From Verrucomicrobiota bacterium (GTDB lineage Bacteria > Verrucomicrobiota > Kiritimatiellia > RFP12 > UBA1067): a stretch of 64,000 nt of DNA. Where the stretch lies: NCBI GenBank assembly GCA_023269675.1, contig JAHFSX010000008.1:85999-149998 (forward strand), written 5' to 3'. The translations under genes were made by a program, and so were the position numbers. Positions 34,668 to 61,785 of this stretch are shown here, one piece after another; position 1 is the first letter of the stretch; every line of letters starts with the position of its first letter. The notes under the pieces are model-generated. The model saw nothing but the letters and a program-made list of their open reading frames with translations. It had not been told where the DNA came from and ran no database searches.

Positions 34668-34933
34668 GGGCGCATCCCCGTTTCATTGACTAACGTGGGC
34701 AAAGCCCGCAACCCAATTGAACCGCAGATGGCCGAATACTGAACCGCAGATTGTCGAAGTTAAGCTTCCTCTACGCAATTGAAGCTCTTTCCTTCATGAT
34801 TCGCCAATCGTCATTCGTCAATCTGCGGTTTGTTCAGGTACAAAACAACGTGGTTTTTATTGTCGGTTTCGAGCCGTAAGGCGCTACCCGCACAGGTTAT
34901 CCCCCGACAAGGCAGTGAAACGGGGATGCGCCC
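34668..34933 (+). mobile_element. MITE-like element, copy 1 (266 bp), with 18-bp hairpin-forming terminal inverted repeats; ~93% identical over ~215 bp to the inverted copy at 61463-61785
   Basis: TIRs GGGCGCATCCCCGTTTCA (34668-34685) and TGAAACGGGGATGCGCCC (34916-34933); internal aaccgcagat x2 direct + atctgcggtt inverted; ~45% GC; sits 191 bp upstream of the MFS transporter ATG; contains spurious ORF MFRYKTTWFLLSVSS. Confidence 0.7.
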
Positions 34934-35123
34934 GGCCGCGCGGACCAAGGCCCGTTCACGCGGCCCCCTGAGGCGCCGGGTCGCCGGCAAAAGGAGGCGC
35001 AGGCGCCGAACGGCAGATTTGGGGGTTTGTAAACCGGAAAAAAAGGTGTATACTGCCGCCCATTAAATGGTTGAGGCCGGATTAAGCCGCCCGACCGTTC
35101 TGACGTGAAAGAGGGAGAGTGTT

Positions 35124-36578
35124 ATGGCAGATGTCGCGGTCAAGCCGTCCACCCGCGTGGTGGCGGCGCATTTCGTGTTCCCGTTCGTGCTCGTCACCAG
35201 CTGCTTCGCCTTGTGGGGCTTCGCGAACGACATCACCAACCCGATGGTCGCGGCGTTCAAGAACATCCTGCTGATCAGCAATTTCCAGAGCTCGCTCGTG
35301 CAGTTCGCCTTCTACGGCGGCTACTGCGTGATGGCGATTCCGGCCGCAATCTTCATCAAGCGCTTCAGCTACCAGGCCGGGCTCATTTTAGGTCTCGCGC
35401 TCTACGCCGCCGGCTGCCTCCTGTTCATCCCCTCGGGCTGGATGATGGCCTTCTGGGCGTTTCTGCTGGCGTACTTCATCATGACCTGCGGGCTCTCCTT
35501 CCTTGAGACCAGCGCCAACCCCTACATCCTCTCGCTGGGCGCGGAGGAGACCTCGACCCGCCGCCTCAATTTCGCCCAGGCCTTCAACCCCATGGGCTCG
35601 CTCACGGGCATGCTCGTGGCGAAGAACTTCATCCTGCAGAAGATCGACCCCATGACCGAGGAGGCGCGCCGGGCCCTGCTGGCGACGGATCCCGCGAAAT
35701 TCAAGGCCATCGCCGACCATGACCTCAGCGTCATCATCCTGCCCTACGCGCTGCTCGGGCTCGTCGTGCTGGTCATGATGGTCGTCTTCTGCATCGCCAA
35801 AATCCCCCGCCACAAGGGCGAGGAGCACGCCTCGCTGGATCTGTTGCCCACCCTCGGCCGGCTCGTCAAGAACCGCCGCTATGTCGCCAGCGTCATCGCC
35901 CAGACCTTCTACGTCGGCGCGCAGATCATGTGCTGGACCTTCATCATCCAGTACGCGGAAAGCACCCTGGGCATGAGCAAGGCCGACGGCCAGTTCTACA
36001 ACATGATCGCCATGACGATCTTCGTCACCAGCCGCTTCATCTGCACCTTCCTGCTGAAGTTCTTCAACCCCGGCGGCCTGCTGCTGTCCCTCGCCACGAT
36101 CGGGCTCCTGCTGCTCGGCTGGACCATCTTCGGCGGCGGCAACCCCGCGGCCGGCGCGGCCCTGCAGGCCCAGATGCAGCAGGCGACCGGCGCCGCCACG
36201 GGCATGGCCTCCGCCTTCGCGGCGCTGGGCGTCTACCTGAAGGCGCCGTTCCTGATCCACGGCATGTCGGGGCTCATGGCGCTGGTCGGCGCGTCGGCCT
36301 GCATGTCGCTGATGTTCCCGACCATTTACGGCATCGCGCTGAAGGGGCTGGGCGAAGACGCCAAGCTCGGCGCGGCGGGCCTGATCATGGCGATCGGCGG
36401 CGGCTGCCTCATGCCCCCCATGCAGGGATGGATCATGGACCAGAGCGCCTTCAACCTCGGCTTCATGACCCTCGCCAGCGTGCGGGTCTCGTTCGTCCTG
36501 CCGCTGATCTGCTTCGCCGTCATCATGGAGTACGGCTGGAAGACCTACCGGACCTACCTGCCCACCGCCCATGCCTGA
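35124..36578 (+). CDS. MFS transporter, L-fucose:H+ symporter (FucP)/glucose-galactose transporter family
   Basis: 484 aa, 12 predicted TM segments; N-terminal FucP-like motifs (ALWGFANDITNPMVAAFKNIL, FAFYGGYCVMAIPAAIFIKRFSYQAG). Confidence 0.85.
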   Translation: MADVAVKPSTRVVAAHFVFPFVLVTSCFALWGFANDITNPMVAAFKNILLISNFQSSLVQFAFYGGYCVMAIPAAIFIKRFSYQAGLILGLALYAAGCLLFIPSGWMMAFWAFLLAYFIMTCGLSFLETSANPYILSLGAEETSTRRLNFAQAFNPMGSLTGMLVAKNFILQKIDPMTEEARRALLATDPAKFKAIADHDLSVIILPYALLGLVVLVMMVVFCIAKIPRHKGEEHASLDLLPTLGRLVKNRRYVASVIAQTFYVGAQIMCWTFIIQYAESTLGMSKADGQFYNMIAMTIFVTSRFICTFLLKFFNPGGLLLSLATIGLLLLGWTIFGGGNPAAGAALQAQMQQATGAATGMASAFAALGVYLKAPFLIHGMSGLMALVGASACMSLMFPTIYGIALKGLGEDAKLGAAGLIMAIGGGCLMPPMQGWIMDQSAFNLGFMTLASVRVSFVLPLICFAVIMEYGWKTYRTYLPTAHA

Positions 36579-36614
36579 GGCCGACCTCTCAAACCCTGAA
36601 CCCCCTCCCCTTTT

Positions 36615-37988
36615 ATGCCTCCGAAAGCCGCACCCCGCCGCCCCAAGCGCAAAACCGTTAAGACCTTTGTCCTCGACACCAACGTCCTGCTCCACTCCCC
36701 GGTGGCGCTGGGCGTCTTCGACGACAACCACCTCGTGCTGCCCATGGCGGTGCTCGAGGAACTGGACAAGTTCAAGACCCAAAGCTCCGAACTCGGACGC
36801 AACGCCCGCGAATCGATCCGCAAGCTCGACGCCCTGCGCGCCGGCGGCAAGCTCTCCAAAGGCGTCGCGCTCCCCAACGGCGGCACCCTGCGCGTGCTCG
36901 TCACGCCCGCGGTCGAGAAAGCCGGCCTCGAGGAGGACACGCCCGACAACGCGCTCATCCGCCTGGCCTACTCCCTCGGGCGCAAGGGCGAGCGCGTCAT
37001 CATCATCTCCATGGACATCAACGTGCGCGTCAAAGCCAACGCGCTGGATCTCGAGACCGAGGACTTCGAGCACGAGAAGGTCAACTTCGACGAGCTTTAC
37101 AGCGGGTACGCCGAAACCGTCGTGCCGAGGGAGCTCATCGAACGCCTCTACGAAGGCCAGTCGCTCGCCTCCGTCCCCGTGAAGTGCTACCCCAACATGT
37201 TCCTGGAGCTGACCGCCGCCGAGATCCCGGAGATGAAGGCCATCGCGCGCGTCTTCCCGGACGGCACCCTCGCGGAGATCAACGTCGACATCGACACGGT
37301 CTACGGCATCCAGGCCCGCAACGTCGAGCAGCGCATGGCGCTGGAGCTGCTGATGGACCCTTCGGTCAGCATCGTCACCCTGGTGGGCCAGGCCGGCACG
37401 GGCAAGACCCTGCTGGCCCTCGCCGCCGGCCTGCAGCTCGTGCAGCGCGAACACCTCTACGACCGCATCCTGGTCTCGCGCCCGATCGTGCCGCTCGGCA
37501 AGGACATCGGCTACCTGCCCGGCAGCAAGGAGGAGAAGCTCTCGCACTGGATGGAGCCGATCTTCGACAACCTCGACTACCTGCTGCGCAAACACCAGCC
37601 GGACCAGCCGCCGGCCGGCGCCAAGAAGCCGCCCAAGCTCTCGAACCCGCAGGAGCGCATCCAGCAGCTGCTCGACACCGACACGCTGGAGCTGGAGGCG
37701 CTCACCTATATCCGCGGACGCTCCATCTCCCGCCAGTTCATCATCATCGACGAGGCGCAGAACCTCACGCCGCACGAGGTGAAGACCGTGGTCAGCCGCG
37801 CGGGCGAGGGCTCGAAGGTGATCCTCACCGGCGACCCCTACCAGATCGACAACCCGTACCTGGACGCCTCCAGCAACGGCCTCACCTACGCCGCCGAGCG
37901 CATGAAAGAGCTGCCGCTGCACGGCCACGTCACGCTCCACCACAGCGAGCGCAGCCAGCTCGCCGCAGCAGCCGCGAAATACCTCTGA
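36615..37988 (+). CDS. PhoH-like ATPase with N-terminal PIN domain (PhoH2/YlaK-type)
   Basis: N-terminal PIN FVLDTNVLLHSP...MAVLEELD; C-terminal PhoH P-loop GQAGTGKTLLALAAG and ..IIDEAQNLTPHE.. box. Confidence 0.9.
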   Translation: MPPKAAPRRPKRKTVKTFVLDTNVLLHSPVALGVFDDNHLVLPMAVLEELDKFKTQSSELGRNARESIRKLDALRAGGKLSKGVALPNGGTLRVLVTPAVEKAGLEEDTPDNALIRLAYSLGRKGERVIIISMDINVRVKANALDLETEDFEHEKVNFDELYSGYAETVVPRELIERLYEGQSLASVPVKCYPNMFLELTAAEIPEMKAIARVFPDGTLAEINVDIDTVYGIQARNVEQRMALELLMDPSVSIVTLVGQAGTGKTLLALAAGLQLVQREHLYDRILVSRPIVPLGKDIGYLPGSKEEKLSHWMEPIFDNLDYLLRKHQPDQPPAGAKKPPKLSNPQERIQQLLDTDTLELEALTYIRGRSISRQFIIIDEAQNLTPHEVKTVVSRAGEGSKVILTGDPYQIDNPYLDASSNGLTYAAERMKELPLHGHVTLHHSERSQLAAAAAKYL

Positions 37989-38128
37989 TCATGAACCGTG
38001 CGAACTCTCAGCGCTGAACGCCTAGCTTTCAACGTCCGATGAAGGCCAGCGCTCTTCGCTTGAGCGTTGAAGGCAGGGCGCTGAACGTTGAGCGTCATAT
38101 TTCTGGCTTACAAATCAGGATCCTTAAA

Positions 38129-38626
38129 ATGTTGACCCTTCCAGGCACCACGTTTTGGCAGAAGGCCTCGGTCTTCGCCGCCACCGGCTTCGGGCTGGGC
38201 CTCGTCGCCCCCATCGCCCCCGGCACGCTCGGCTCGCTCCCCGGCGTGCTGCTCGCGCTGTGGGTGACGCGGCAGCACCTGCCGCTGCAACTGCTCGTCT
38301 GCCTCGGCATGACGCTCCTCGCGGTCCCCATCTGCGACGTGGCCGAGCGCGTGCTGGGCAAGAAAGACGACGGCCGCATCTGCGCGGACGAGTGGATGCT
38401 CTTCCCCATCTGCGTCATCGGGCTGCCGCTGCTGCAGCACCTGTGGCTCATCCCCGTCTGCTTCGTGGTGGCGCGCGTGTGCGACATCATCAAACCGCCG
38501 CCCGCGCGGCAGCTGCAGGAGATCCACGGCGGCATCGGCATCGTCATCGACGACTTCTTCGCCTCGCTCTATGCGCTGGCGATCAACCACGGCGTTTATT
38601 GGGCCGTGATGCGCTTCCTCGCTTAA
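38129..38626 (+). CDS. pgpA: Phosphatidylglycerophosphatase A
   Basis: ORF 38039..38626; start placed at MLTLPGTTFWQKASVFAATGFGLG; PgpA hallmarks (GTLGSLPG..., ..DDGRICADEW.., IKPPPARQLQE.GGIGIVIDD). Confidence 0.8.
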   Translation: MLTLPGTTFWQKASVFAATGFGLGLVAPIAPGTLGSLPGVLLALWVTRQHLPLQLLVCLGMTLLAVPICDVAERVLGKKDDGRICADEWMLFPICVIGLPLLQHLWLIPVCFVVARVCDIIKPPPARQLQEIHGGIGIVIDDFFASLYALAINHGVYWAVMRFLA

Positions 38627-38733
38627 CACCGCTTTTCAGCATTGCGAACTAGGCAACCTTTCTGTAAATTAGTCACTCTTTTGTGCCGCCAATCACACGC
38701 CCGTGTCCGGCACCCATGATCGGAGGATTTTTG

Positions 38734-39228
38734 ATGAGCGAATTATGTCCCTGTGGCAGCGGCCTTGCCTTTGAGGCCTGCTGCGAACCGTTCCTGCTGG
38801 AGCGCCAGAAGCCCCGTACCGCCAAAGCCCTGATGCGTTCCAGGTATTGCGCCTACGCCATGGGCTCGGTCGATTATCTGTACAAGACCTCCGGGCCCAA
38901 AGTCCGCAAAGAGTTCGACGCCGAAAGCAGCCGCAAATGGGCCGAGTCGGCCAAGTGGACCGGCATCGAGATCCTCTCCGAGGAGGGCGGCGGCGAAAAG
39001 GAAGACTCCGGCGTGGTGGAGTTTCTCGCCCACTATTCGGTCAACGAAACCAGCTTCGACCACCACGAGCGGGCCGAGTTCGCCAAGGTCGACGGCGAGT
39101 GGTGCTTCATCGACGGCAAAATCTTCGGGCCCGACCCGGTGCGCCGCGACCAGCCCAAAGTCGGCCGCAACGACCCGTGCCCCTGCGGCAGCGGCAAGAA
39201 GTTCAAGAAGTGCTGTAGCGCGGCATGA
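38734..39228 (+). CDS. ychJ: YchJ-family (UPF0225) protein with N- and C-terminal SEC-C zinc-binding motifs
   Basis: ORF 38683..39228; start placed at [10 protein letters not shown]; CPCGSG at both termini (C-terminus [13 protein letters not shown]); candidate TTGCGA-N17-TAAATT promoter at 38642-38670. Confidence 0.8.
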
Positions 39229-39893
39229 ACCTCGACGCGTTCATCTTCGATCTGGACGGCACGCTGGTCGACACGGAGCTGCTGTGGGCCGACGCCATGC
39301 GGCTCTACCTCGCCGACCGCCGGTGCGACTGCCCGCGGCAAACGGTGCTGCACATCGTCTTCGGCCGCTCGTGGACGGACATCTACCGCGATGTCACGGC
39401 CCGCTTCCCTCTGCTCGCGTCCACCCCGGTGGACGCGATGGCCGAAGGGCTGCGCAACGTGTATCTGCGGCTGCGCAACCAGCACGAAAACGTCATCATC
39501 CACTCGTCGGCGCTCCTGCTCAAGTCCCTGTCGCAAAGCTACCCCGTGATTATCGTCTCGGGGTCGCCGCGCGCCGACGTGGAGGAGGCTGTGCTCCTCC
39601 TGGAGGCGTCCGCCCATGTGCGGTTCGTGCTCGGCGCGGAGGACTACGCGCCCGGCAAGCCCTCGCCCGCGGGCTTCCTGCTGGGCGCACACCGCCTCGG
39701 CGTCGCTCCCGCCAACTGCCTCGTGTTCGAAGATTCCCACGCCGGCGTCACGGCCGCCAAGGCCGCCGGCATGTGGTGCGTCGCGCTTGCGCGCGACTGC
39801 GCACACCCGCAGGACCTCTCCGCCGCCGACTGGGTCCTGACCGACCTGTCCGAGTTTTCGGTTGAGGCTTTCCGCCAGCGCCTCACCGTCTGA
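39225..39893 (+). CDS. HAD-superfamily hydrolase, subfamily IA (beta-phosphoglucomutase-like phosphatase)
   Basis: Motif [14 protein letters not shown]; later VSGSPR and [15 protein letters not shown] (motifs III/IV); ATGA overlap with ychJ stop. Confidence 0.8.
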
Positions 39894-39899
39894 CGCTCT

Positions 39900-41801
39900 T
39901 CACCAACTCAGCTCGAAGAGCGCCGTATCCGGCGACTTGAACGTGTAGGTGAAGCTTCGTCCCGCCACAGGGACCACCTGCCCGGTGTAGAGCTCCTTGA
40001 CCTCCCGGCACGCGCAGGGAAGCGTGACCGTCTTCGCTCCGCCCTGCGCCATGTGGACAGCCACGAGCCGCTCGTTGGCGTACACCGGCACCGCGTCCTC
40101 GCAGTAGATCGTCACCCCCGCCGCCACGGCCGCCTCCCGCAGCGCCTGCGGCGTGACCGCGTCGTAACCGGACGCGTAGACCGCCTGCCAGCCGTCCCGC
40201 GCCACCGCCGTAACGCCGGGCGCCTTGAAGGCCGTGCCGGTCAGTTCTTTGACGCGCGCCGTATCCAGACTCTTGCCGTCACTGATGCCGGGCGCATAGA
40301 CGAAGAAGGCCGTGCGGTTCTTGTTGAACACGTGTTTCCTGAGGATCTCGGCCTTTTCGGGCGTGACCTCGAAAAGCCCGGGGAAGACGAGCAGCTTGTA
40401 TTGCGACAGGTCGGCGCGCGGCAGATCGTTGAACGAGAAGACCTCGAACGGCGCGCCCAGGCGGTTCAGCTTGTTGCGCGTGGCCTGATAGATCTGCGCC
40501 ACCAGCGGGTTCTGGTCGTTGACCAGCCGCGCGCTCTGCGGGTCCACCACCAGCGCCACCTCGGCGCGGCTCTTGAGCGGGAGCGCCGCATAGGCGTCCC
40601 ACAGCCGCTTGCTCTGCGCCACGATCTTCATGGTCTCCGGCGTCTTGAACACGCCGCCCCACATGTCGAAGCACCAGAGCGAGGTCTGGTTGATGATCGC
40701 CAGCGCGAACTCGCGCTTCAGCCCGGCGTCGGTCTCCGCCTGATCCTTCCACGGCACCATCCAGCCGATCGACACGTACTCGTCGAGCGCGCAGTTGTAG
40801 GTCGGCGTGCGGTGGTCGATCTCGTGCAGGAAGCCCTTGCCGTTCAGCACGCGCGTGCCGTTGGGCACCATGAAGCCGCTGCCGCCGCCCATCGGCCGGT
40901 CCCCGTAGGTGCCGGGACTGATAAAGAAGTCGATGTCCGGCGACGCGTAGAGCCTCTCATACTCCAGATGGCCGGCCCACACCATGCGCGAATGCGTCAG
41001 TTCGAGGATGTAGCCGAAGAACATGCCGATCTGCCGGCCCCGCGGGATGAGCGACCGCGTCTTCGCGGCGAAACCGAGCACCGTGTCCGCCACGACATCG
41101 CCCGTGAACTGGGCGTAGTCGATCACGTCGCGCTCGGCCGCGTGATCGCGGAGCAGCCCCTCGAAACCGGCGCGGTCGATGCGCTCCAGCGCGGGCACCG
41201 GCGCATCTTCCATACCCTTGCCTGTGCGCCATGTTTTCCAGGCCTGCGCCTTGGCGCGGCCCGCCACGCCGCGGCTGTAGTCCATCCACTCGTCGGTCTG
41301 GCCGCATGCCAGCAGGTAGGCTTTCACGCGGTCGCCGTAGCGCGCCTCCAGATGGCTGACCACCGCCGCCAGATACTCGGCCGTGGCCTTGCGCCACGCC
41401 GGGTTGGCGCAGGCGCAGCTCAGCATGGTGAAGCTCTCGCACTCGGCGCTGTGACCCTGCAGCGACAGCTGCCGCTGCAGCCAGACCGGCGTGTTGAGGT
41501 CGACCATGCAGATGAACTGCGCGTTGGTGTTCACCGCCAGCACGTCATCGTATTGCTTGTCCAGCGACGCGAAATCGTATTTGCCGAACCAGCGCCAGAC
41601 CGGCGCATACTTGCAGTATGGCAAGCCCAGCGAGTTGTCGGTGTTCGCCGCGAAGATGCAGACCGTGTCCACGCCGGCGTCCTTGAACTGCCGCATCGCC
41701 CCGAACTCCGGCCAGAACGAGCGGTAGGAAAAGGCGAGCGGCCGCGACGGCTCGGCGGCAGGAGACGGCAAAGCTGAAGCGACTAGCGCCAGCGTAAGCA
41801 T
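39900..41801 (-). CDS. Putative glycoside hydrolase, GH42-like (beta-galactosidase-like TIM barrel + trimerisation-type C-terminal domain)
   Basis: ORF 39900..41921; start placed at MLTLALVASALPSPAAEP (signal); C-terminal LLVFPGLFEVTPEKAEILRKHVFNKNRTAFFVYAPG resembles the GH42 trimerisation domain; family call is tentative. Confidence 0.65.
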   Translation of the reverse strand: MLTLALVASALPSPAAEPSRPLAFSYRSFWPEFGAMRQFKDAGVDTVCIFAANTDNSLGLPYCKYAPVWRWFGKYDFASLDKQYDDVLAVNTNAQFICMVDLNTPVWLQRQLSLQGHSAECESFTMLSCACANPAWRKATAEYLAAVVSHLEARYGDRVKAYLLACGQTDEWMDYSRGVAGRAKAQAWKTWRTGKGMEDAPVPALERIDRAGFEGLLRDHAAERDVIDYAQFTGDVVADTVLGFAAKTRSLIPRGRQIGMFFGYILELTHSRMVWAGHLEYERLYASPDIDFFISPGTYGDRPMGGGSGFMVPNGTRVLNGKGFLHEIDHRTPTYNCALDEYVSIGWMVPWKDQAETDAGLKREFALAIINQTSLWCFDMWGGVFKTPETMKIVAQSKRLWDAYAALPLKSRAEVALVVDPQSARLVNDQNPLVAQIYQATRNKLNRLGAPFEVFSFNDLPRADLSQYKLLVFPGLFEVTPEKAEILRKHVFNKNRTAFFVYAPGISDGKSLDTARVKELTGTAFKAPGVTAVARDGWQAVYASGYDAVTPQALREAAVAAGVTIYCEDAVPVYANERLVAVHMAQGGAKTVTLPCACREVKELYTGQVVPVAGRSFTYTFKSPDTALFELSW

Positions 41802-41810
41802 TGCCACAAA

Positions 41811-41880
41811 CGTATGTTGTACCGCCTTCAGGCGGATGCTTGCGCACATGCGTTGCCGGCTGAAGCCGGTACAACATACG
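41811..41880. repeat. REP-like element (same family as 23222-23340 and 30867-31078) in the 5' region of the GH42-like gene
   Basis: 13-bp perfect IR cgtatgttgtacc (41811-41823) / ggtacaacatacg (41868-41880); hairpin ccgccttcaggcgg (41823-41836; its rc ccgcctgaaggcgg is at 23239-23252); core gccggctgaagccggtacaacatacg (41855-41880). Confidence 0.6.
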
Positions 41881-41917
41881 AGACACGGCATCTGTTCTTT
41901 GCGACTGCGCACCATGC

Positions 41918-42838
41918 TCACGATCCCTTTCCTCCCAGCTTACCGATCTTATCGAGGTCTACGGCTTCTTGCGCTTTAGGGAAGCGGTGCGGCAACAGCT
42001 CCCACTCTTCCGCGTAGGAGGCCGAGGCCCCCGGCGCGAGGGTCTCGCGCGGGCCGATCGGCTCCAGCTCGCACATCTCGTCCCTGAAGTACCAGATCGA
42101 GATCGTGAGCCCCGCCATTTCGCTGTAGACACGGTCGGGATAGACCGGGAAGCGTTTGACGAACAGCAGGTCGCTGCGCATGAGGTAGCAGAACCAGCCG
42201 GCCGCCGAGTCCATGCCGAGCTTCGGGTTCGCGGGCGTGCCGAGGATCTCGAGGAAGCCGTCGCGGACCCGGATGTTCGGATCTGCCGGCTTGAAATTCA
42301 TCACCGGCCCCGGCCCGTACATGAGGTAGCCCCTCGGGAAGCGGCTGCCGGGCGTCAGCGGCACCAGGCAGAGGCCGCCGCCCACCGCCAGCGTGCGGCT
42401 CCAGTGGCAGCAGGACACCGGCTTGTCGGACGCGTTGATCATGCGCTGCTCACACACGAGGCGCGACGTGTCGGCCGCCAGCGTGAACTCGCGCACCAGC
42501 CGGATGCCCGTCACCCGGTCGCACACGCTGGTGAGCCGCGCCCGACCTTCGCCGGTCACCTCGCCGGTCCAGTCGCCCAACCACAAATCAGGGTGCGGCG
42601 CGAGGACGTTCTCGGGGCCGATGTCGAGCCGCCCGCCGCACGGATCCACGCTCGGGATACCGGGCACGTGCCGCCACCCCTGCTGCGCCGGATTCAGATA
42701 CAGGGCGTTCACGCCGTTGAGCGAATACTCCAGCACGCGACCGCCGGCCTGCGGACAGAGCACCACGCGCGTGCCTGCGCCGTTCTCAAGGGCGATACAA
42801 TTCTTGTACCCGAAAAATTCGATGACCTCTGTTTTCAT
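41918..42838 (-). CDS. Hypothetical protein (unknown function, ~306 aa)
   Basis: ORF 41918..42928; start placed at MKTEVIEFFGYKNCIALENGAG, the first ATG downstream of the tandem hairpins at 42858-42920; high coding GC3; no recognisable catalytic motifs. Confidence 0.55.
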   Translation of the reverse strand: MKTEVIEFFGYKNCIALENGAGTRVVLCPQAGGRVLEYSLNGVNALYLNPAQQGWRHVPGIPSVDPCGGRLDIGPENVLAPHPDLWLGDWTGEVTGEGRARLTSVCDRVTGIRLVREFTLAADTSRLVCEQRMINASDKPVSCCHWSRTLAVGGGLCLVPLTPGSRFPRGYLMYGPGPVMNFKPADPNIRVRDGFLEILGTPANPKLGMDSAAGWFCYLMRSDLLFVKRFPVYPDRVYSEMAGLTISIWYFRDEMCELEPIGPRETLAPGASASYAEEWELLPHRFPKAQEAVDLDKIGKLGGKGS

Positions 42839-42943
42839 GTTTCTCATCCCTCGGCAGGGACGGTTCCCCGAACCGTCCGCCGCTCCCGTTGTGCCACACG
42901 GACGGCTCGGGGAGCCGTCCCTACCCAATTCGACCGATTCGAA

Positions 42944-45139: not shown

Positions 45140-45186
45140 TTTGCTTCCCCTCCTCCTGTCAAACTTGCGCTTTAAACGTTGAGCAT

Positions 45187-52994: not shown

Positions 52995-53031
52995 GGCTGC
53001 TCCTTAATCCGTCCGCACTCCGTTTTCCGGA

Positions 53032-54252: not shown

Positions 54253-54284
54253 ATCACGCCCTTTGCTTAACTTTTCAGTCTCTC

Positions 54285-56540
54285 TCAATTCCCACGTATG
54301 ACTTCCGTCCGGCCCTTGAACACGATCACGATCCGCTTATTCCCGCCTTGAGCTGTCACTTCTTTGACCGCGGCCTGGTTGAGCGACGCCCCTTCGATGA
54401 GACCGGCCGGCAACACCAGCGTCCGCCGTTGCTCACGGTCCGCATCGCCCGGCAGTAGCATCAGCCGCGCGAGCCGCCCGCCCTTGACCTCAACCTCTAC
54501 GGCGAGGTTGCCGTGACACGCGAGCTTGAACGCGTAATCCTTCCACGTCTCGGGCACGCCACCCGCGATCAGGATCCGCTCTTCCCGGCTCTGCACCAGC
54601 ATCTGGTTCAACGCGTACACGACGTTCCCCGACGCGGTCGCGAACCACGGGGTCCGCGACACCTTGGCCTCGTTGATCTCGAACATCTCGCCGAAGCAGC
54701 CCGCGCCGGAGGCCGCCTCGTCCAGCAGCTTGCCCGGCTCCGTCTTGTCGCCCAGCTCAGCCAGCGCCGCGGCCATCCACCCCAGATACCACGCGCACAC
54801 CGACTGCCCCATCTGGTACATGTTGCCGAAGGCCCGGCCGTTCTGCACGTAATGATAGACCGCGTTGCGCTGGCGCACCTCCGTCTCATCGAACACCGGA
54901 TACGGGAAGAGCCCGCCCAGCGAGGCCACGCTCTCGTCCGTGCAGCCCGCATACGGAACGTACCGGTCGCCCTCGACCGGCAGCGACGCGCGCAGCTTCG
55001 CGGCCGCCCGGTCCCAGGCCGCGGCTTCCGCGCCGTCCGCCTTGAGCACTGAGGCCGCCCGCGCCGCAGCCTCCAGCGTGTAGATCGCGCCGCAGGAGGT
55101 CATGAACGGGTTGATCCTCGCGGGACCCAGCCGCTCCAGGTCGGTGCACTTGCCGATGAACATCCCGCCGTCCGGGGACTCGTACACCATATTGGCGAGA
55201 AAAAAGCGCGCGCACTCCTTGATCACCGGGTAGCCCGTCTTCGCCAAGTAGTCCGCGTCGTCCGTGTATTGGTACTGATACCACGCCGCCAGCGCGATGT
55301 TGGACATGTGGAACACGTGCTCCATCCAGAATCCGGGCGGCGCGGCCTCGGCCCCGTCCTCCAGCGTCTCCCACGGATAACGCGCGCCGTACGTCCCCGC
55401 CTTGCCGTAGTGGGCGGCACGGTAGAGCGCCGTCTTCAGCCCCGCGAAGCGGAACTCGGGGCCGCGCCGCGCGATGTCGCGGTGGTTGCTGCTGACCAGC
55501 GCCTGATAGCAGAACATCTCGTCCCAGCCGAAGAAACGGCCCGCCCAGTGCGAATTGAAGATGCCGACCGGGAACGACCACCGGGTCGCGTTGGCCCGCA
55601 GGTGGTACTGCGCCGTGCAGTAGGCGGTCTCCAGCTTGGCGTCCGGCAGATGCACGTACGACTCGGCCCAATACGCGCCCCACGCTTTCTGATGGCCGGC
55701 GAACAAGCCGTCATAGCCCTCTTTTAGCGCGGCCGCCTGCAAGCTCGCCGCCCGTCCGCCAAAATCCTTGCCGTCCAGCGAGTCCTCGAAAAGGAGGAAG
55801 AATGTCACCTCGGCCGGCTTGCCCGCTTCGAGCGCGAACTCGGAAGTCAACGCGGCGGCCTGACCGTCGACGGCGGCCGTCACCGGTTTGTCCGCGAAGA
55901 CCGCAATCATGCCATCGCTGGGCCGATGGGCGTCCGCTTGGAAACGGTACTCCGCGCGCCTGTGCGCCTCGTTCCACGCGCACGCGCTGACCACGCGCTT
56001 CGGCGGCTTGTTGGCGCTACCCTGCGGCGTGAAGCGGTAGTTGAATGTCACCCGGGCCGAACGGACCGCGGCACGGCTGGATGAAACGCGTTTTTTGATC
56101 ACGACCAGATCGCGGGAGAGCGGCGTGAATACGGAGGTCTCGACCACCAGGCCGTTGCCGTACTCGTTGCGGCAGGTCACCCGCGCCGACTTCGTATCGA
56201 GCGTCTGCGTCCAGCTGGACGGCACCGCCAGTTTCTGGCCGTCGGCGAACACGTCGGTCTCGAAATGGCCGAAGGGGATAAGCTGGTCGTTCGGCGGTCC
56301 GTAGCGCCGTCCCTCCCAAAAGATGGTCGGCGTCATGTTGACATAGCTGCACTGGGCCTGGCCGCCCAGATAATCGACCAGCATGCAGAGGCTGCCGTTG
56401 CTGACCAGCGGCGGCACATAGCCTTCCGGAATGGCGTTCGTCGCACCGCCAACCGTATTCAGATGCGCGGAAACGGCGTCTGCAAATCCCCCTGCCGACG
56501 CCAGCGCCAAACACAAGACTAGACTCCATCCCCTGACCAT
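54285..56540 (-). CDS. Putative six-hairpin (alpha/alpha)6-barrel glycoside hydrolase (GH65/GH95-like architecture)
   Basis: ORF 54285..56558; start placed at MVRGWSLVLCLALASAGGFADA; N-terminal beta-sandwich + long helical C-terminal region; family not resolved from sequence alone. Confidence 0.6.
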   Translation of the reverse strand: MVRGWSLVLCLALASAGGFADAVSAHLNTVGGATNAIPEGYVPPLVSNGSLCMLVDYLGGQAQCSYVNMTPTIFWEGRRYGPPNDQLIPFGHFETDVFADGQKLAVPSSWTQTLDTKSARVTCRNEYGNGLVVETSVFTPLSRDLVVIKKRVSSSRAAVRSARVTFNYRFTPQGSANKPPKRVVSACAWNEAHRRAEYRFQADAHRPSDGMIAVFADKPVTAAVDGQAAALTSEFALEAGKPAEVTFFLLFEDSLDGKDFGGRAASLQAAALKEGYDGLFAGHQKAWGAYWAESYVHLPDAKLETAYCTAQYHLRANATRWSFPVGIFNSHWAGRFFGWDEMFCYQALVSSNHRDIARRGPEFRFAGLKTALYRAAHYGKAGTYGARYPWETLEDGAEAAPPGFWMEHVFHMSNIALAAWYQYQYTDDADYLAKTGYPVIKECARFFLANMVYESPDGGMFIGKCTDLERLGPARINPFMTSCGAIYTLEAAARAASVLKADGAEAAAWDRAAAKLRASLPVEGDRYVPYAGCTDESVASLGGLFPYPVFDETEVRQRNAVYHYVQNGRAFGNMYQMGQSVCAWYLGWMAAALAELGDKTEPGKLLDEAASGAGCFGEMFEINEAKVSRTPWFATASGNVVYALNQMLVQSREERILIAGGVPETWKDYAFKLACHGNLAVEVEVKGGRLARLMLLPGDADREQRRTLVLPAGLIEGASLNQAAVKEVTAQGGNKRIVIVFKGRTEVIRGN

Positions 56541-56752
56541 GGCTCCCCCGTTTGTCATCTCACAACCATGGAACCACTATAGGTGTTCCTCCACCGGCAA
56601 GCAACCTCGATAATGCGAACTCAACCCTCGATTTCACGAACTTCCAAAGCGCCCTCTCGCGTTTCAGACGCCAGCCGGCAAGCACCCGCCGCAACGGCCA
56701 AGCGCCTTCGCCACGACCGTGCGGTCCGTTCATCGCGCGCCCGACCGGGCCC

Positions 56753-58570
56753 TTATTGAATTTCCTTCAGCAGCACGCAGGCGCCGCCGCCGGGCGCGAG
56801 CTTCACGCGGAGCGCGTCGGCGCGCGTCACGGCGCGCGTCACCGCCGTGTAGCTCTCCTTGTGGGTCCGGTAGTCCGAGTCGGCGCCGTCCCCCAGCACG
56901 AGCGCCTCATAGCGGCCCTCGCCGAGGAAAGAGAGCGGGATGTCGAGCTCGCGCGGATCCTCGTTCGTCGCGGCGCCCACCAGCCATGCGCCGTCCGCCG
57001 CCTGCCGGGCCATGACGATGTGCTCGCCGATCACGCCGCTCAGCGTCCGGCTCTCGCGCCACGGCTGCTTCTCGGCGGCAATGAACTGGAGGAGTTCCGG
57101 ATGCTTCCGGTAATTCTCCGGGATGTCGGGGATGACCGTCGCGCCCGAGAACACGATCAGCGTGCGGGCCGCCTCGCCCGCCAGCGTCGACGGCACCGGC
57201 TGCGCCTGGTCCACGCGCCCCGCCTGCGTCAGGTCGGCCAGCCCGTTGTTCATGTCGATGGGGCCGGAGAGCATGTTGACGAAGACCGTCGTCACGAACG
57301 TCTTGGGCTGGAACACGCGGTGCGCGTCGAGCTGCGCGTGGCACAGCTCGCGCGTCACGGCGTTCGGCCACGTGCGCATCTGGCCGTACGGGTGCACCGG
57401 GCCGTCGTGGAAATCGCAGAGCAGCCTGTTCTTCGCGCACAGCTCGGTGATGAGCCGCGTCCGCTCGTTCTTCTCCTGCGGGGTGCCCTTCATGAAACCG
57501 TACTTGATCCCCGCCGCGCCCCACTCACCGTAGTTCTTCAACGTCTGGTCGATCGGATAGCCCCTTCCCGCGACATCGTTCAGATAGAGCCAGATGCCCA
57601 CGTGCTTCTGCTTGGCATAGACGATCAGCTTCCGCGCGTCGCCCGCATAGCCGCCCTTGGTCGGATCGGACTCCTTGCTGAACTCCTTGCCGTACCAGTC
57701 GGCGTCGAGCACCAGATAGCGGATGTTGTTCTCCGCCGCAAAGTCCACCATCCGCACCCACGAAGGATACGACATCTCGTACTTGAAGCCGTCCCCCTGC
57801 GCGCCGTTGATGCGCCAGTCCCACACCGCCACGCCCGGCTTCACCCACGAGAAGTCCAGACCTTCCGCCGGCGGCGGGTTAAGCAGCTCGATCAGGTGGG
57901 AATCCACGAGCGCGCCCGGCTTCCGCCCGAACAGGAGCACGCGCCAGGCCGCGCTCGGCTTCGACGCGAGGCTGAAAGCGGTCTCGCCCTTTTTGGTCTG
58001 CAGCGCGAGCGGGTCGCCGTCCCCCAGGTCCGCCTCGAGCACGGCGAGATAGGCGTCGTCCGCCGCCTTGACCGTCATCGGCGGCATCCGCTTGCCGTCG
58101 CTCTCCGAGAGCTTTTCCGGGCCGAGGTTATGATGCTCGCCGTTGTAGAACCACGCCGTGTAGTCGCCCGCGAAGCAGAACTGCGTGCGTTCCGCGCCCG
58201 AGCCGCCGAGGCAGCGGAACGCCACGCCGTCGTCGTACGCGCGCGCCACCAGCCGGTAGGCCGTCAGGTCAAGCGTCACCTCGTTGTAGCGCTCCGGCAC
58301 GCTGGCGCGCTTGCCCCACACCGGCTTCCAGACCGAGTCCGCCGAACGCCGCGCGACGCCGGCCAGCGCCCCGCCCTCGTAGCCGACCGGCGACGCCTGG
58401 ATCAGCGCCTTGCCGTCCGCCTGCAGCGAATACGACACCCGGCCGCCGTCGCACGCAAACGCGAGCGAGACCTTGCCGTCCGGCGACGTCACCCCCACCG
58501 GCGCCGCCATCACCGACCATCCGCACGCCGCAACCGCCGCCAGCCAACCGATTCTACCCGTCATACGCAT
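56753..58570 (-). CDS. Glycoside hydrolase family 97 (alpha-glucosidase/alpha-galactosidase-type)
   Basis: 605 aa; signal; N-terminal GVTSPDGKVSLAFACDGGRVSYSLQADGKALI matches the GH97 N-domain pattern (SPDG.L...F.L...G...Y.V); TIM-barrel core YLVLDADWYG; strong RBS AGGGAGG before ATG. Confidence 0.7.
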   Translation of the reverse strand: MRMTGRIGWLAAVAACGWSVMAAPVGVTSPDGKVSLAFACDGGRVSYSLQADGKALIQASPVGYEGGALAGVARRSADSVWKPVWGKRASVPERYNEVTLDLTAYRLVARAYDDGVAFRCLGGSGAERTQFCFAGDYTAWFYNGEHHNLGPEKLSESDGKRMPPMTVKAADDAYLAVLEADLGDGDPLALQTKKGETAFSLASKPSAAWRVLLFGRKPGALVDSHLIELLNPPPAEGLDFSWVKPGVAVWDWRINGAQGDGFKYEMSYPSWVRMVDFAAENNIRYLVLDADWYGKEFSKESDPTKGGYAGDARKLIVYAKQKHVGIWLYLNDVAGRGYPIDQTLKNYGEWGAAGIKYGFMKGTPQEKNERTRLITELCAKNRLLCDFHDGPVHPYGQMRTWPNAVTRELCHAQLDAHRVFQPKTFVTTVFVNMLSGPIDMNNGLADLTQAGRVDQAQPVPSTLAGEAARTLIVFSGATVIPDIPENYRKHPELLQFIAAEKQPWRESRTLSGVIGEHIVMARQAADGAWLVGAATNEDPRELDIPLSFLGEGRYEALVLGDGADSDYRTHKESYTAVTRAVTRADALRVKLAPGGGACVLLKEIQ

Positions 58571-58675
58571 GTCCTCCCTTAGACTTAGCTTGCATCATCG
58601 CGAAAATGCGCGCCGGAATCAAGCGCTTACTCGCACCCGGGTCTGATTCAACTTCGTTGAATCCACACCCGGAGG

Positions 58676-58890
58676 AGGAGTTAGGATTTAGGAGTTAGGA
58701 ATTGCAATGCCATGGCCGCGAACGTGTTCGTACCCTGCTCGAGAGTCCGTGTTCGTGTCTTCAAAATGAGGTCAAACGTATGGCCTCAAGAAACGGTTGT
58801 TCGCGGAAGGGTTCCGCCTTGTCGAACGCCCTGTTTTCAGGGCCTTCCGCGCTTCCAACTCCTCAATCCTAACTCCTGAATGCTCCTTAG
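58676..58890. repeat. Inverted-repeat element in the GH97 5' region: 25-bp arms of tandem AGGAGTTAGGA units flanking a 163-bp core
   Basis: Left arm aggagttaggatttaggagttaggaa (58676-58701); right arm rc ttcaggagttaggattgaggagttggaa (58863-58890), ~23/25 identical; core has direct repeat cgtgttcgt x2 (58722-58730, 58748-58756); adjacent perfect hairpin gattcaac-ttc-gttgaatc (58645-58663). Confidence 0.55.
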
Positions 58891-59000
58891 CCTTCCCCGC
58901 CCTGTCGAACAGCCGAGCCCCCGTCCCTCCGCGACGCCCCCAGCTACGAAAAAAGGGACCTGCCCGGTTGGGCAAGTCCCTCGTGCGTGCGGGAACGGCG

Positions 59001-60389
59001 CTACACCGTGATCTCTTTCAGCTCCCAGCCCTTGCGGAAGAGGGGCTTGACGAAGGCGTTGGCCTTCTCGTTGTTGGTGAAGCGCATGTTCTTGGAGTCC
59101 CACAGGAGCTTCTCGTTCGGGAAGCGCCAGCAGATCGTGCCCAGCAGCATCCACTCCGTGTAAGGCGCGGAGATGCTGAAGTTCGAGCAGGCCGCGGGGC
59201 CGCCCTTGCACGCGCGGATCCAGTCCTTGAAGTGGCCCGGCGAGCGCTCGATCAACTCGGGCGGACGCTTGTAGTCCTTCATCTTGGCCTCGGGAATCAG
59301 GCGCACGCCCTCGCCGCGGCCCGTAGTGCCCATGAACCCCTTGGTGCCGACGAAAATCTCGTTGTAGGGCTTGACATCCTCGCGCGTCAACCCTTCGGGG
59401 ACATTGAACTTGCTGCACATCTTGCCCTCGTACCAGTACACCGTCACGGGCGGCATCTTCCCGCCGGCGACGAACTTGTTCGGGCGCTCGCCGAACTCGA
59501 ACCGGCACGCGTAGTGCGGATAGGTCACGTCGTTGACCTCGTCGACCGCGATGCACTCCACGCTGAGCGGATCGGTCAGCTGCAGGCCCCAGTTGGCGGG
59601 ACCCATGATGTGGACGCCCCAGTCGCCGATCATCATCGTGCCGTAGTCCAGGAAGCCGCGCCACTGGATCGGAGCGATCTTGGCGCTGTACGCATGCATC
59701 GGCGCGCGACCGGTCCAGAGCTCCCAGTCGAGCGTGCGGGGCACATCCTCCCCGGTCGGCCACGCCTTGACGCCGCGCGCGAATCCGCCGCCGTTCATCC
59801 CGTGCACCTCTTTGATTTCGCCGAGGTCGCCGTTCCAGATCGTCTCGCTCGCGATCCGCGTGGCGGGATGCGAATAGCCCTGGTTGCCCATCTGCGTGGC
59901 GACCTTGTACTTCTGCGCGGCCTTGGCCAGCTGACGGCACTCCCAAATGGACTGCGCCAGCGGCTTCTGGCAGTGGACGTGCAGCCCGCGCTCCATCGCC
60001 CACAGCGCGACCGTCGCGTGCATGTGGTCGGGGATCGTGATGGTGATGCCGTCGAGGTTCTTGTACTCCTTGTCCAGCATCTCGCGGAAGTCGCGGTACT
60101 TCTTGGCCTGCGGATATTTCGCCGCGGACTTGTTCAAGAAGTTCTCGTCCACGTCGCAGATCGCGTAGATGTTCTCGCTGCTGACGTTGTTGACATCGCT
60201 CGCGCCCTGCATGCCGCCGACGCCGACGCAGCCGAGGTTCAGCTTCTCGCTCGGCGCCAGTTGCCCGGAGCGCGCGATGACGTGACGCGGCACGATGGAA
60301 AACAGCGCGCCCGCCGTGAGGGCCGAACCCAAGAAACCGCGCCGGGACAGGGGAGCAGCCCCTTTAACCTGTTGACTCATGGCTTTCAT
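59001..60389 (-). CDS. Gfo/Idh/MocA-family NAD(P)-dependent oxidoreductase with Tat signal peptide
   Basis: 462 aa; Tat motif SRRGFLGSALTAGA; Rossmann LNLGCVGVGGMQG; typical Gfo/Idh/MocA core. Confidence 0.85.
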   Translation of the reverse strand: MKAMSQQVKGAAPLSRRGFLGSALTAGALFSIVPRHVIARSGQLAPSEKLNLGCVGVGGMQGASDVNNVSSENIYAICDVDENFLNKSAAKYPQAKKYRDFREMLDKEYKNLDGITITIPDHMHATVALWAMERGLHVHCQKPLAQSIWECRQLAKAAQKYKVATQMGNQGYSHPATRIASETIWNGDLGEIKEVHGMNGGGFARGVKAWPTGEDVPRTLDWELWTGRAPMHAYSAKIAPIQWRGFLDYGTMMIGDWGVHIMGPANWGLQLTDPLSVECIAVDEVNDVTYPHYACRFEFGERPNKFVAGGKMPPVTVYWYEGKMCSKFNVPEGLTREDVKPYNEIFVGTKGFMGTTGRGEGVRLIPEAKMKDYKRPPELIERSPGHFKDWIRACKGGPAACSNFSISAPYTEWMLLGTICWRFPNEKLLWDSKNMRFTNNEKANAFVKPLFRKGWELKEITV

Positions 60390-60402
60390 CCTCCTTTACC
60401 GG

Positions 60403-61347
60403 TTACGCCAACGCCTGCTTGCAGAACTGGACGCACTTCGCGACCTCTTTGACCGCGTCGGAGTCTTTGGAAATCGCGTACTCCAGCTCGATGTCACCGA
60501 AGATCGGGAGCTTGTTTTTCTTGATGTACTGCAGCGCCGCCGGAACCGGCGTGTCACCCTGGCCGAACGGCAGGTTGGCGCCTTTGTTCGCCTTGTTCTT
60601 GCGGTCCTTGAGGTGCAGGCTGATGATCCTGTCATGGTATTTCTCGATCACCGCCAACACCGAGTCGTCGTTCGCGGCGGTGTAGTGGCCGATGTCAAGA
60701 TTGATCGCCAGGTTCTTGCCATAGGTCAGGATCGGACCGTCGTAGGTCGTCGCGTTGATCTGCATGTGGTTGTGGAACCCGATCAGAATCCCGTGCTTGT
60801 CCGCAACCGGGCCGAGGCGCTTGGCCGCGTTCTCGTCGATCTCGCGCGTGATGCCCTTGGCGCCGAGCGCCTTGGCCACGCGGAAGTAGTAGTCGATCTG
60901 ACCGTCGGACATGTCCTTGCCGCCGATGTCGCCGAACTTGACGATGTGGATGCCGACGCCCGCGTCCTGATACAGCTTGCGCAGCGCCTCAAACTTCTCC
61001 ATCGGCGCGGCGAGCCGCCAGTCGAGCATCGCCTTGACCTGCGCCGGATCCTTGGCGTTCCCGCCGGGGCAGCCCGCGAAACTCTCGGCCGTGTTGCCCA
61101 TCAGCTCGATCGAGTTGATGCCGCTCGCGACCACGTGCTTCAGCACCGACGCGGCGTCGCCCGGCATCGAACGGTAGCTGTAGGTGATGACACCGATCTG
61201 AACCCCGCCGAACAACGAATCCGGCTTGGCGTCCGCCCCGAAAACTTTGGCCGGAACCAGCGACGCGGCACCCACAGCCGCCATGCTCCCCAGAAACGAC
61301 CGACGTGACAACGATACCCCGTGACTCTGCATCATACGATCCCCCAT
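60403..61347 (-). CDS. Sugar-phosphate isomerase/epimerase (xylose-isomerase-like TIM barrel) with Tat signal peptide
   Basis: ORF 60403..61623; its first ~92 codons lie inside the MITE-like repeat; start placed at MGDRMMQSHGVSLSRRSFLGSMAAVGAASL (Tat); TIM-barrel motifs GFHNHMQ, IGHYTAAND; 13 bp upstream of the Gfo/Idh/MocA gene. Confidence 0.8.
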   Translation of the reverse strand: MGDRMMQSHGVSLSRRSFLGSMAAVGAASLVPAKVFGADAKPDSLFGGVQIGVITYSYRSMPGDAASVLKHVVASGINSIELMGNTAESFAGCPGGNAKDPAQVKAMLDWRLAAPMEKFEALRKLYQDAGVGIHIVKFGDIGGKDMSDGQIDYYFRVAKALGAKGITREIDENAAKRLGPVADKHGILIGFHNHMQINATTYDGPILTYGKNLAINLDIGHYTAANDDSVLAVIEKYHDRIISLHLKDRKNKANKGANLPFGQGDTPVPAALQYIKKNKLPIFGDIELEYAISKDSDAVKEVAKCVQFCKQALA

Positions 61348-61462
61348 GACTTCCGCTCCGTTTTGCGCCTCATTCTTTCGACCGTCACCACGGTCCCAAG
61401 ACAAGACGTATTGCGACATAGAATAGTGCTTACGTGGCCTTTTTTCAACACCGATGCTAAAC

Positions 61463-61785
61463 GGGCGCATCCCCGTTTCACTCACTACCCGCGCCCGGCG
61501 GTCGCGGGCCACCTTGCGCGGCACCTCTTTCAAGGGTGGTGCGCGACCTTGTCTCTCGGGCGCGGTTAGTGCCTTACGGCTCGACACCGACAATAAAAAA
61601 CACGTTGTTTTGTACCTGAACAAACCGCAGATTGACGAATGACGATTTGCGAATCATGAAGGAACGAGCTTCAATTGCGTGGAGGCAGCTCTACTTCGAC
61701 AATCTGTGGTTCAGTATTCGGCCATCTGCGGTTCAATTGGGTTGCGGGCTTTGCCCACGTTAGTCAATGAAACGGGGATGCGCCC
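61463..61785 (-). mobile_element. MITE-like element, copy 2 (323 bp, inverted relative to copy 1), same hairpin TIRs
   Basis: TIRs GGGCGCATCCCCGTTTCA (61463-61480) and TGAAACGGGGATGCGCCC (61768-61785); rc of 61565-61785 aligns at ~93% to 34668-34885; extra ~57 bp of divergent sequence next to the gene-proximal TIR; 115 bp upstream of the isomerase start. Confidence 0.7.

Follow-up and report, generated by a model that had tools for sequence, protein, structure and literature searches.

What kind of sequence lies in two inverted copies, 26.5 kb apart, directly ahead of two sets of sugar genes? In the window (the whole 64-kb stretch of DNA analysed here) a repeat search identified inverted arms at 34668-34891 and 61562-61785. 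These are 95% complementary over 224 nt (213 of 224 positions identical) and include a perfect run of 78 nt. The preliminary description had put this core at ~215 bp and ~93% identity; the inverted repeat is real and is slightly longer and better conserved than that. Three readings of the pair were offered at that stage: a non-autonomous mobile element carrying an outward promoter, a structured leader shared by sugar operons, and a substrate for inversion of the intervening segment.

The two elements (A and B) are bounded by the 18-mer GGGCGCATCCCCGTTTCA, which occurs exactly four times in the window (34668+, 34916-, 61463+ and 61768-); with up to three mismatches allowed, ~0.14 matches would be expected by chance. 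As had been reported, all four ends are identical at 18 of 18 positions, and comparison with the wider family extends the terminal inverted repeat to ~24-26 nt (24-28 nt across the family). Element A (34668..34933, + strand) measures 266 bp and comprises the left end, an AT-richer core of ~200 nt and the right end. Its left terminal inverted repeat (34668..34691, +) is GGGCGCATCCCCGTTTCATTGACT, of which the first 18 nt are common to all four window ends and ~24 nt are shared family-wide. The right repeat (34908..34933, -; reverse complement GGGCGCATCCCCGTTTCACTGCCTTG) matches the 26-nt end of a full-length IS at 25 of 26 positions. A perfect target-site duplication of 9 bp (9/9), GGCCGCGCG, previously missed, flanks A on the left (34659..34667) and on the right (34934..34942). 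Neither element has coding capacity, the longest stop-free stretch being 52 aa in A and 63 aa in B. The core has a GC content of 49% (not ~45%, as first given) compared with 66% for the whole window. The internal dyads noted earlier are present, and the elements have folding z-scores of -7.3 and -8.8, due mainly to the terminal inverted repeat.

Element B (61463..61785, - strand) is 323 bp long; the length of 266 bp originally given for the element therefore applies to A only. Ahead of the right end, the final 25 nt of A and 87 nt of B are unrelated to each other. Judged by its sequence, B is chimeric and combines two lineages of MITE. One part (61562..61785, -) supplies the left end and the core homologous to A. 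The other (61463..61549, -; 87 nt), which includes the right end, is foreign and shares ~90% identity with the end of another MITE lineage, of 144 bp (L040/L083). The fusion point lies between GACAAGG and TCGCGC. Inspection of its flanks revealed no target-site duplication around B, which fits a chimeric origin. We rejected the idea that an L040-type MITE was split and left its remaining half in the upstream flank of B: the two align poorly (score 38) and in the wrong orientation, through sequence that is GC-rich and palindromic.

A search for the end across 185,579 genomes returned at least 115 loci. The same ~24-nt end is carried by at least ~100 loci of PVC-group MAGs, many of them at contig ends, and in another assembly of the same strain a contig is broken inside the core. 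The end is conserved as GGGCGCATCCCCGTTTCAYTGACY; the interiors are diverse and mutually unrelated, as are the genes beside which they lie. Among the 115 loci listed, 50 end pairs bound elements of 108-494 bp, and ~20 of the 50 have perfect 9-bp duplications. A scan of viral contigs gave three matches, of which one alone is a family MITE. REP/RAYT-type elements were rejected because the family has 9-bp duplications and a DDE partner.

One relative (L069), which is syntenic with the window and ~88% identical, provides an empty site for B: the element is absent and the intergenic region is ~170 nt, compared with 525 nt in the window. This relative has its own, different MITE 2.5 kb away, at a position where the window has none. 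A second relative (L153) is without an element at the A site, although its upstream synteny differs from that of the window. If the similarity of A and B simply reflected segmental duplication of an intergenic region, the presence of only two copies in the window would be readily understood. We give this practically no credence. It is refuted by the sharp boundaries (the similarity starts exactly at the left terminal 18-mer, ends ~224 nt inward and leaves the flanking genes untouched), by the 9-bp duplication of A and those across the family, and by the same ends at the 100 or more other loci. Inverted repeats, the duplication around A, copies in many genomes, the empty site of B and an IS with the same ends all uphold the non-autonomous mobile element first suggested.

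The 64-kb window contains no transposase gene. Among the 115 loci listed, no autonomous copy was found, either as end pairs 600-6000 bp apart or as ORF clusters of at least 220 aa. Two candidates were rejected: L075, where an end seemed to adjoin coding sequence, is a chimeric contig that includes adapter, and L094 is unrelated. Full-length ISs of 1749-1759 bp (~1.75 kb) with the same ends as the MITEs are found in other sequences (L130, L132, L135-L151 and L154-L173). They encode an ISKra4-like transposase of 428 aa, together with a DUF6788 ORF in divergent orientation. Perfect 9-bp duplications flank two copies (L139 and L148), and there is no duplication at two others (L130 and L132). The transposase matches the NCBIfam ISKra4 model NF033572 with an E value of 1e-48 over model positions 28-421 of 422, at 166.6 bits, which is below the curated cutoff of 205. 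Models for ISLre2 (68 bits) and ISH6 match more weakly, and the Pfam assignment is UPF0236. By tblastn, the closest relatives with an annotation are cyanobacterial genes labelled 'ISKra4 family transposase' (~32% identity). Homologues of the transposase form 264 clusters, mostly on contigs of 1.5-2.5 kb, as expected of a collapsed multi-copy IS. One MAG contains both MITEs with a homologous core (L030 and L112) and a transposase beside the same end (L105). On these model and similarity matches, the partner transposase is ISKra4-like; it is common in Lentisphaerae, Kiritimatiellae and Verrucomicrobia.

Why, then, should such elements be located at gene starts? The distances to the downstream ATG, 190 nt for A and 115 nt for B, agree with those described before. 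We located promoters as consensus matches to sigma70. The one closest to A, TTGACA-16-TATGAT (11/12; 34625..34652, -), serves the divergent gene 31767-34598(-), with 15 nt between the left end of A and the start of the -35 hexamer. The L-fucose-permease-like MFS gene on the other side (35124-36578) has its own sigma70-like promoter, TTGTAA-16-TATACT (35027..35054, +), 93 nt past the right end of A; this promoter and the leader that follows are nearly identical in L153, without the element. Close to B, the promoter TTGAAA-17-TATTCT (61420..61448, -) precedes the operon for a Tat xylose-isomerase-like protein and a Gfo/Idh/MocA protein. Its -35 hexamer starts 14 nt from the right end of B, the end contributed by the foreign MITE lineage, and the site is kept as TTGATA-17-TATGCT in L069, which lacks B. 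No promoter-like site was found inside A or B on either strand. The outward promoter that the preliminary description had proposed within the element is therefore not supported: the sites lie outside it, between element and ATG, and are conserved in the two relatives without it. The observation that both copies have the same orientation toward the downstream gene is geometrically true but probably without meaning: A has its left end next to a promoter, that of the divergent gene, and B its right end.

The strongly negative folding z-scores, together with the fact that both copies point at a downstream sugar gene, might suggest that operons for sugar uptake and sugar catabolism share a conserved, structured 5' leader or cis-regulatory RNA. 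Against this, the folding energy comes mainly from the terminal repeat, and neither A nor B has an Rfam match at the gathering threshold (with only noise at E<=10). The promoter-like sites are downstream of both elements, which would thus fall outside the leaders, and the orthologous leaders in L069 and L153 occur without an element. In a comparison of the two sequences, 4 of the 11 substitutions between A and B fall in predicted pairs; all four break the pair and none is compensatory. In addition, neither the interiors between these ends nor the genes nearby are related from one locus to the next. We consider a leader function highly improbable.

A different regulatory role would be recruitment by the host, with the MITEs replacing upstream activator, repressor or UP-element DNA, or with the AT-richer core bending the DNA, and so altering expression of the sugar genes or the divergent gene. 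The location of both elements directly upstream of promoter-like sites, the low GC content of the core against its background and the known insertion of this IS group upstream of promoters can all be cited in its favour. However, L069 and L153 retain the promoters and leaders without the element, the elements contain no promoter-like site, and 93 nt separate the copy beside the MFS gene from the promoter of that gene. The family interiors are also unrelated and therefore share no cargo function. Recruitment is thus unlikely in our view.

The position at gene starts is probably due to insertion upstream of promoters by this transposase family. Within the ISKra4 group, IS whose inverted repeats are near-perfect are reported to integrate 13-17 bp ahead of sigmaA promoters and may face either way; their repeats are 18-39 bp long and end in C, and they generate 8-9-bp duplications (Guerillot et al. 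2014, PMC3942029). The ends of the present family (...GCGCCC-3'), its 24-28-nt repeats and its 9-bp duplications match this description. We assembled 169 unique element junctions and recorded the distance to potential -35 boxes. The trinucleotide TTG is found exactly 27 nt from the element end at 32 of the 169, compared with a mean of 3.3 at other offsets (Poisson P = 5.6e-21), and 25 of these 32 junctions also have a -10-like hexamer at the correct spacing. With IS junctions added, the count becomes 35 of 176. Both element ends are used at promoter-side junctions. The modal family distance of 27 nt is unlike the 15 and 14 nt of the window copies; near those offsets there is a weak excess (six strict promoter matches at offsets 9-15).

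Inversion must be considered separately. An identity of 95% over 224 nt, including a perfect run of 78 nt, is enough for RecA-dependent recombination, and the inverted copies could in principle serve as substrates for programmed or recurrent flipping of the 26.5-kb carbohydrate-gene segment. While such an event is physically possible, as had been pointed out, the junction at B is collinear with L069, which itself lacks B, and another assembly of this genome (ENA contig ERZ27297709, available as gene calls only) has the same gene order. A short Logan contig (L152) also matches the window downstream of A. Finally, there is no invertase gene, and the elements show no sign of a switchable promoter. 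Flipping of the segment is very unlikely.

The explanation that we favour with considerable confidence is that A and B are non-coding MITEs, passengers of the ISKra4 group that are moved in trans and were placed by promoter-upstream integration. The parent IS would be a member of this group (Mutator-like DDE, p-MULT 4), widespread in Lentisphaerae, Kiritimatiellae and Verrucomicrobiota. Its 428-aa transposase, made elsewhere from the 1.75-kb IS, would bind both 24-26-nt ends and relocate the element, creating a 9-bp target duplication. Integration would occur a defined distance ahead of sigma70-type -35 boxes and would leave genes and core promoters intact; targeting of this kind, rather than selection, would account for the promoter-side position. 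In this scheme A would be a simple insertion upstream of the divergent gene promoter, and B a core-type MITE fused to the end of the second lineage upstream of the isomerase-operon promoter. Most likely B arose where it now lies, when a deletion or a recombination event joined two adjacent insertions, and such a fusion would account for its missing duplication.

The closest known system is the ISKra4 group (p-MULT 4; PMC3942029). The transposases appear to be homologous over essentially their full length, and both groups have near-perfect inverted repeats (24-26 nt here) ending in C and 9-bp duplications. They also seem to share a fixed spacing of the insertions ahead of sigma70-type promoters, whichever way the element faces. 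Some ISKra4-group members also have an extra ORF of unknown function. The differences are that the present transposase falls below the NCBIfam cutoff and is only ~32% identical to the annotated cyanobacterial members, that its hosts (Lentisphaerae, Kiritimatiellae and Verrucomicrobiota) are absent from the phyla listed in 2014, that the junctions most often lie 27 nt from the -35 box instead of 13-17 nt, and that the IS is always accompanied by the divergent DUF6788 ORF, with the window containing non-autonomous derivatives only. TnGBS and ISLre2 (p-MULT 3) likewise have Mutator-like DDE transposases, duplicate 8-9 bp of the target and integrate 15-17 bp ahead of the sigmaA -35 box, a 'safe' position which leaves genes intact. 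Their homology to the present transposase is weaker, their hosts are Firmicutes, some are ICEs, and the asymmetry of their inverted repeats restricts them to one orientation.

Classical bacterial MITEs (for example, the Correia elements of Neisseria, RUP, ERIC and IS-derived MITEs) likewise occur as multiple short, non-coding copies that carry terminal inverted repeats and show target duplications. They too are mobilised in trans, are usually intergenic and form long hairpins if transcribed. They differ in their ends, duplication length (9 bp here) and partner transposase family. Moreover, one conserved end here joins many unrelated interiors and occurs in chimeric copies, and the transposase apparently determines where the element lies relative to promoters. 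The same superfamily of transposases also takes in the eukaryotic Mutator/MULE elements with their derived MITEs, which have 9-bp duplications and favour gene 5' ends and promoter regions. Their kinship is at the superfamily level only, with different hosts, inverted-repeat lengths and sequences.

A literature search found neither the end sequence nor any link of such MITEs to these taxa. We lean slightly towards regarding the copies as part of an undescribed, PVC-wide ISKra4-like IS/MITE superfamily which integrates exactly 27 bp 5' of the -35 box and whose 24-nt ends are freely recombined with unrelated interiors. If this is true, the 27-bp spacing would be approximately one helical turn beyond the 13-17 bp reported for ISKra4, ISLre2 and TnGBS, and the existence of ~15- and 27-nt spacing classes would indicate that a promoter-bound protein or a face of the DNA is recognised and not a sequence. 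Promoter targeting by Mutator-like transposases would be extended to new phyla and to a different spacing.

For the window itself, the result removes a false lead: the sequence common to the upstream regions of two sugar operons would be transposon debris and not a shared regulator. More generally, it describes an unnamed IS/MITE family that is abundant in polysaccharide-degrading PVC bacteria, and the many matches at contig ends indicate that this family fragments metagenome assemblies. In uncultured Lentisphaerae, Kiritimatiellae and Verrucomicrobia, every insertion may also naturally flag a promoter of the sigma70 type. The insertion sites would mark promoters with base-pair regularity and could aid promoter annotation in lineages with almost no cultured members.

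The window contains a single long inverted repeat, with arms of 224 nt at 34668-34891 and 61562-61785 that are 95% complementary (213 of 224 positions identical). The 18-mer GGGCGCATCCCCGTTTCA occurs at four sites (34668 and 61463 on the plus strand, 34916 and 61768 on the minus strand), where about 0.14 matches would be expected by chance with up to three mismatches permitted. In a pairwise alignment, similarity starts precisely at the left 18-mer and stops approximately 224 nt inward. The flanks share no similarity, and the stretches preceding the right 18-mer (25 nt in copy A, 87 nt in copy B) are likewise unrelated. These limits, together with the 18-mer positions, define A as a 266-bp element (34668-34933, plus strand) and B as a 323-bp element (61463-61785, minus strand). 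The GC content of the common core is 49% compared with 66% for the window. A perfect 9-bp direct repeat, GGCCGCGCG, borders A on both sides (34659-34667 and 34934-34942) and was overlooked in the preliminary description; none is present at the two junctions of B. Both elements are MITEs belonging to a family of ISKra4-like ISs: A is a simple copy with a 9-bp target duplication and B is chimeric. The mobile-element reading proposed earlier is upheld by the duplication on A, by copies in many genomes, by an IS with the same ends and by a relative that lacks B.

The 18-mer was used to scan 185,579 species, each represented by a single genome (596 Gb in all), giving at least 115 matching loci. About 12 of the matches listed are scattered through Proteobacteria, Terriglobia, Firmicutes and others, approximately the number expected by chance of an 18-mer in 596 Gb. 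All the remaining listed matches are in MAGs labelled Kiritimatiellae, Lentisphaerae, Victivallales, Verrucomicrobiota or Akkermansia, about 100 of the listed loci being in PVC-group MAGs. Many listed matches fall 10-55 nt from where their contig stops, as is characteristic of repeats present in many copies. The conserved family end is approximately 24 nt long (GGGCGCATCCCCGTTTCAYTGACY), and the interiors beyond it differ completely between lineages. Pairing of ends among the matches listed yielded 50 short elements (108-494 bp), of which about 20 carry perfect 9-bp duplications and several others show an 8/9 match or a one-base offset. A 331-bp element in the Kiritimatiellae MAG STF1_28 (L030) has approximately 50 nt at each end homologous to the A/B core. 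In two MAGs labelled Akkermansia, a two-module family MITE of 214-217 bp is present in dozens of copies, the majority with a perfect 9-bp duplication (L004, L011, L036, L050, L068, L096-L098 and L106 from CAMBQN01, and the CAZDLY01 loci).

One end variant, …CACTTGCTTG…, was met only at contig ends, and metagenome contigs were therefore scanned for that 26-mer. The scan yielded complete elements of 1749-1751 bp (L130, L132 and L135, the last a whole contig), each with two genes: one for a 428-436-aa transposase-like protein and a divergent 100-110-aa DUF6788 ORF. The larger protein matches the NCBIfam ISKra4-family transposase model over positions 28-421/422 (E 1e-48; 166.6 bits, below the curated cutoff of 205) and, more weakly, the ISLre2 and ISH6 models; its Pfam match is UPF0236. 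Its homologues form 264 clusters at 70-99% identity, nearly all on 1.5-2.5-kb contigs and none carrying a name. The nearest genes in annotated plasmids are cyanobacterial 'ISKra4 family transposase' genes (about 32% identity). Copies with longer flanks measure 1757-1759 bp with inverted repeats of 26-28 nt, and two have perfect 9-bp duplications (L139, CCAACTCGC; L148, AACCGGAAA). Flanks are mismatched at other copies, and the recurrence of left flanks joined to differing right flanks suggests that assembly has fused separate copies of a multi-copy IS. The MAG that contains core-homologous MITEs, STF1_28, encodes the IS transposase as well (83% aa identity), adjoining a CACTGAC-type end (L105). 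A search of the 64-kb window found no such transposase.

The DUF6788 ORF, to which no function is assigned, is present in every full-length IS (L135 1352-1684; L136-L173), approximately 66 nt from the transposase start. Among the Ga0209098 scaffolds (L119-L134), ten loci break off at precisely 184 nt into the DUF6788-side end. In one scaffold two such ends, identical in sequence, point towards one another and have flanks that are unrelated; a gap in the scaffold, an artefact of assembly or a palindromic derivative with two right ends may account for this.

A Lentisphaeraceae MAG contig (L069) is syntenic with 56765-62303 at approximately 88% identity. Its interval between the GH39-like and Tat xylose-isomerase-like genes is approximately 170 nt, compared with 525 nt in the window, and contains no family end. 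L069 has its own 268-bp family MITE (2984-3251) at a place where the window has none. Between its GH97 and Gfo/Idh/MocA genes, an interval of only 375 nt in the window (58626-59001), it also has an additional gene of approximately 540 aa (3440-5070, minus strand), accompanied by a MITE and a repeat of REP-like type. The nearest relative that could be read at the A locus, L153 (its MFS protein is 89% identical), has no family end; the exact empty site is not visible because its upstream gene differs.

Over its last 87 nt, up to and including the end, B matches the end of another MITE lineage, 144 bp long (L040, L083), at about 90% identity, and the switch point GACAAGG|TCGCGC is the exact start of A's own right repeat. 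Had B formed elsewhere and then transposed, a duplication would be expected. Its chimeric sequence and missing duplication fit a probable origin in which two insertions lying close together were joined, either through deletion or through recombination.

The preliminary description also proposed that the copies carry an outward promoter or form a structured 5' leader of sugar operons. Neither reading is supported. A consensus scan of both strands found no promoter-like site within A or B. Predicted promoters lie outside: TTGACA-16-TATGAT (11/12; 34652-34625, minus strand) for the divergent gene 31767-34598, encoding an HZS_alpha-domain protein; TTGTAA-16-TATACT (35027-35054, plus strand) for the MFS permease gene; and TTGAAA-17-TATTCT (61448-61420, minus strand) for the isomerase and Gfo/Idh/MocA operon. 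In the element-less relatives, the isomerase promoter is kept as TTGATA-17-TATGCT (L069), and the MFS promoter with approximately 70 nt of leader is nearly identical (L153). Folding z-scores of both copies are strongly negative, as expected of any element with inverted ends. An Rfam search gave no match. A and B differ by 11 substitutions; the four that fall in predicted pairs all break the pair, none being compensated. A and B adjoin host promoters on their upstream side and leave them intact.

For TnGBS, ISLre2 and thirteen ISKra4-group ISs, insertion was shown to occur upstream of sigmaA promoters at a constant spacing of 15-17 bp, or 13-17 bp when counted from the repeat-genome junction (Guerillot et al. 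2014, PMC3942029). They have 18-39-bp repeats ending in C and 8-9-bp duplications, and those whose inverted repeats are near-perfect insert in either orientation (PMC3942029). In the window, 15 nt separate the left end of A from the -35 hexamer in the promoter of the divergent gene, and 14 nt separate the right end of B from that of the isomerase promoter. A's relevant neighbour is therefore the opposite-strand gene rather than the permease; the shared orientation towards the downstream genes was correctly noted but is probably incidental. In a set of 169 unique end-genome junctions, 32 have a TTG beginning exactly 27 nt from the end of the element (other offsets: mean 3.3, maximum 9; Poisson 5.6e-21), and 25 of the 32 have a -10-like nAnnnT at 16-18 spacing. 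A strict two-hexamer rule also peaks at 27 nt, and with 24 junctions from additional full-length IS copies the count is 35 of 176. Both IS ends are used. Given this peak, promoter targeting is a property of the family, with a modal spacing of 27 nt in contrast to the 13-17 nt of ISKra4, ISLre2 and TnGBS. Offsets of 9-15 nt show a weak excess, with six strict promoter matches that include both window copies. With the mode at 27 nt, we regard targeted insertion as a moderately likely, rather than demonstrated, reason for the position of A and B.

As judged from their sequence, recombination between A and B is possible: the 224 nt at 95% identity include a perfect run of 78 nt. Nothing points to the inversion of the intervening segment suggested earlier: the B junction is collinear with L069, an ENA contig of the same strain has the same gene order, and a short Logan contig of that strain (L152) is identical to the window downstream of A, breaking within the core at 34823 as expected of a repeat.

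Other repeats are present in the window. A second MITE-like element, unrelated to A and B (21598-21801, approximately 204 bp, AT-rich), has 39-nt imperfect inverted ends (GGCTAGAGCATTTCC... / ...GGAAATGCTCTAGCC-like) and internal hairpins of CACCAAGA/TCTTGGTG motifs, with no clear target duplication at its flanks. A REP-like palindromic repeat, GGCCGGC(A/T)NAAGCCGGTACAACATGC, forms two to three 70-nt tandem units and an inverted copy 3' of a gene (30861-31075), and recurs at 41855-41894 and in L069 (3300-3370). An inverted repeat rich in GTTAC/GTAAC motifs at 27074-27164, with 27 nt between its 32-nt arms, resembles an array of operators. At 4182-6845 (also 12900-14500; repeat families D1-D3, D5 and D10), four tandem paralogous coding units, spaced 837-897 nt with segments 60-75% identical, suggest a minus-strand tandem gene array.

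The searchable literature appears to contain no description of the family, of its distribution in PVC lineages or of its 27-nt spacing from promoters. The family's biology is that of known Mutator-like bacterial ISs and their MITEs, and the Akkermansia-labelled copies are the richest set for the study of its recent activity.
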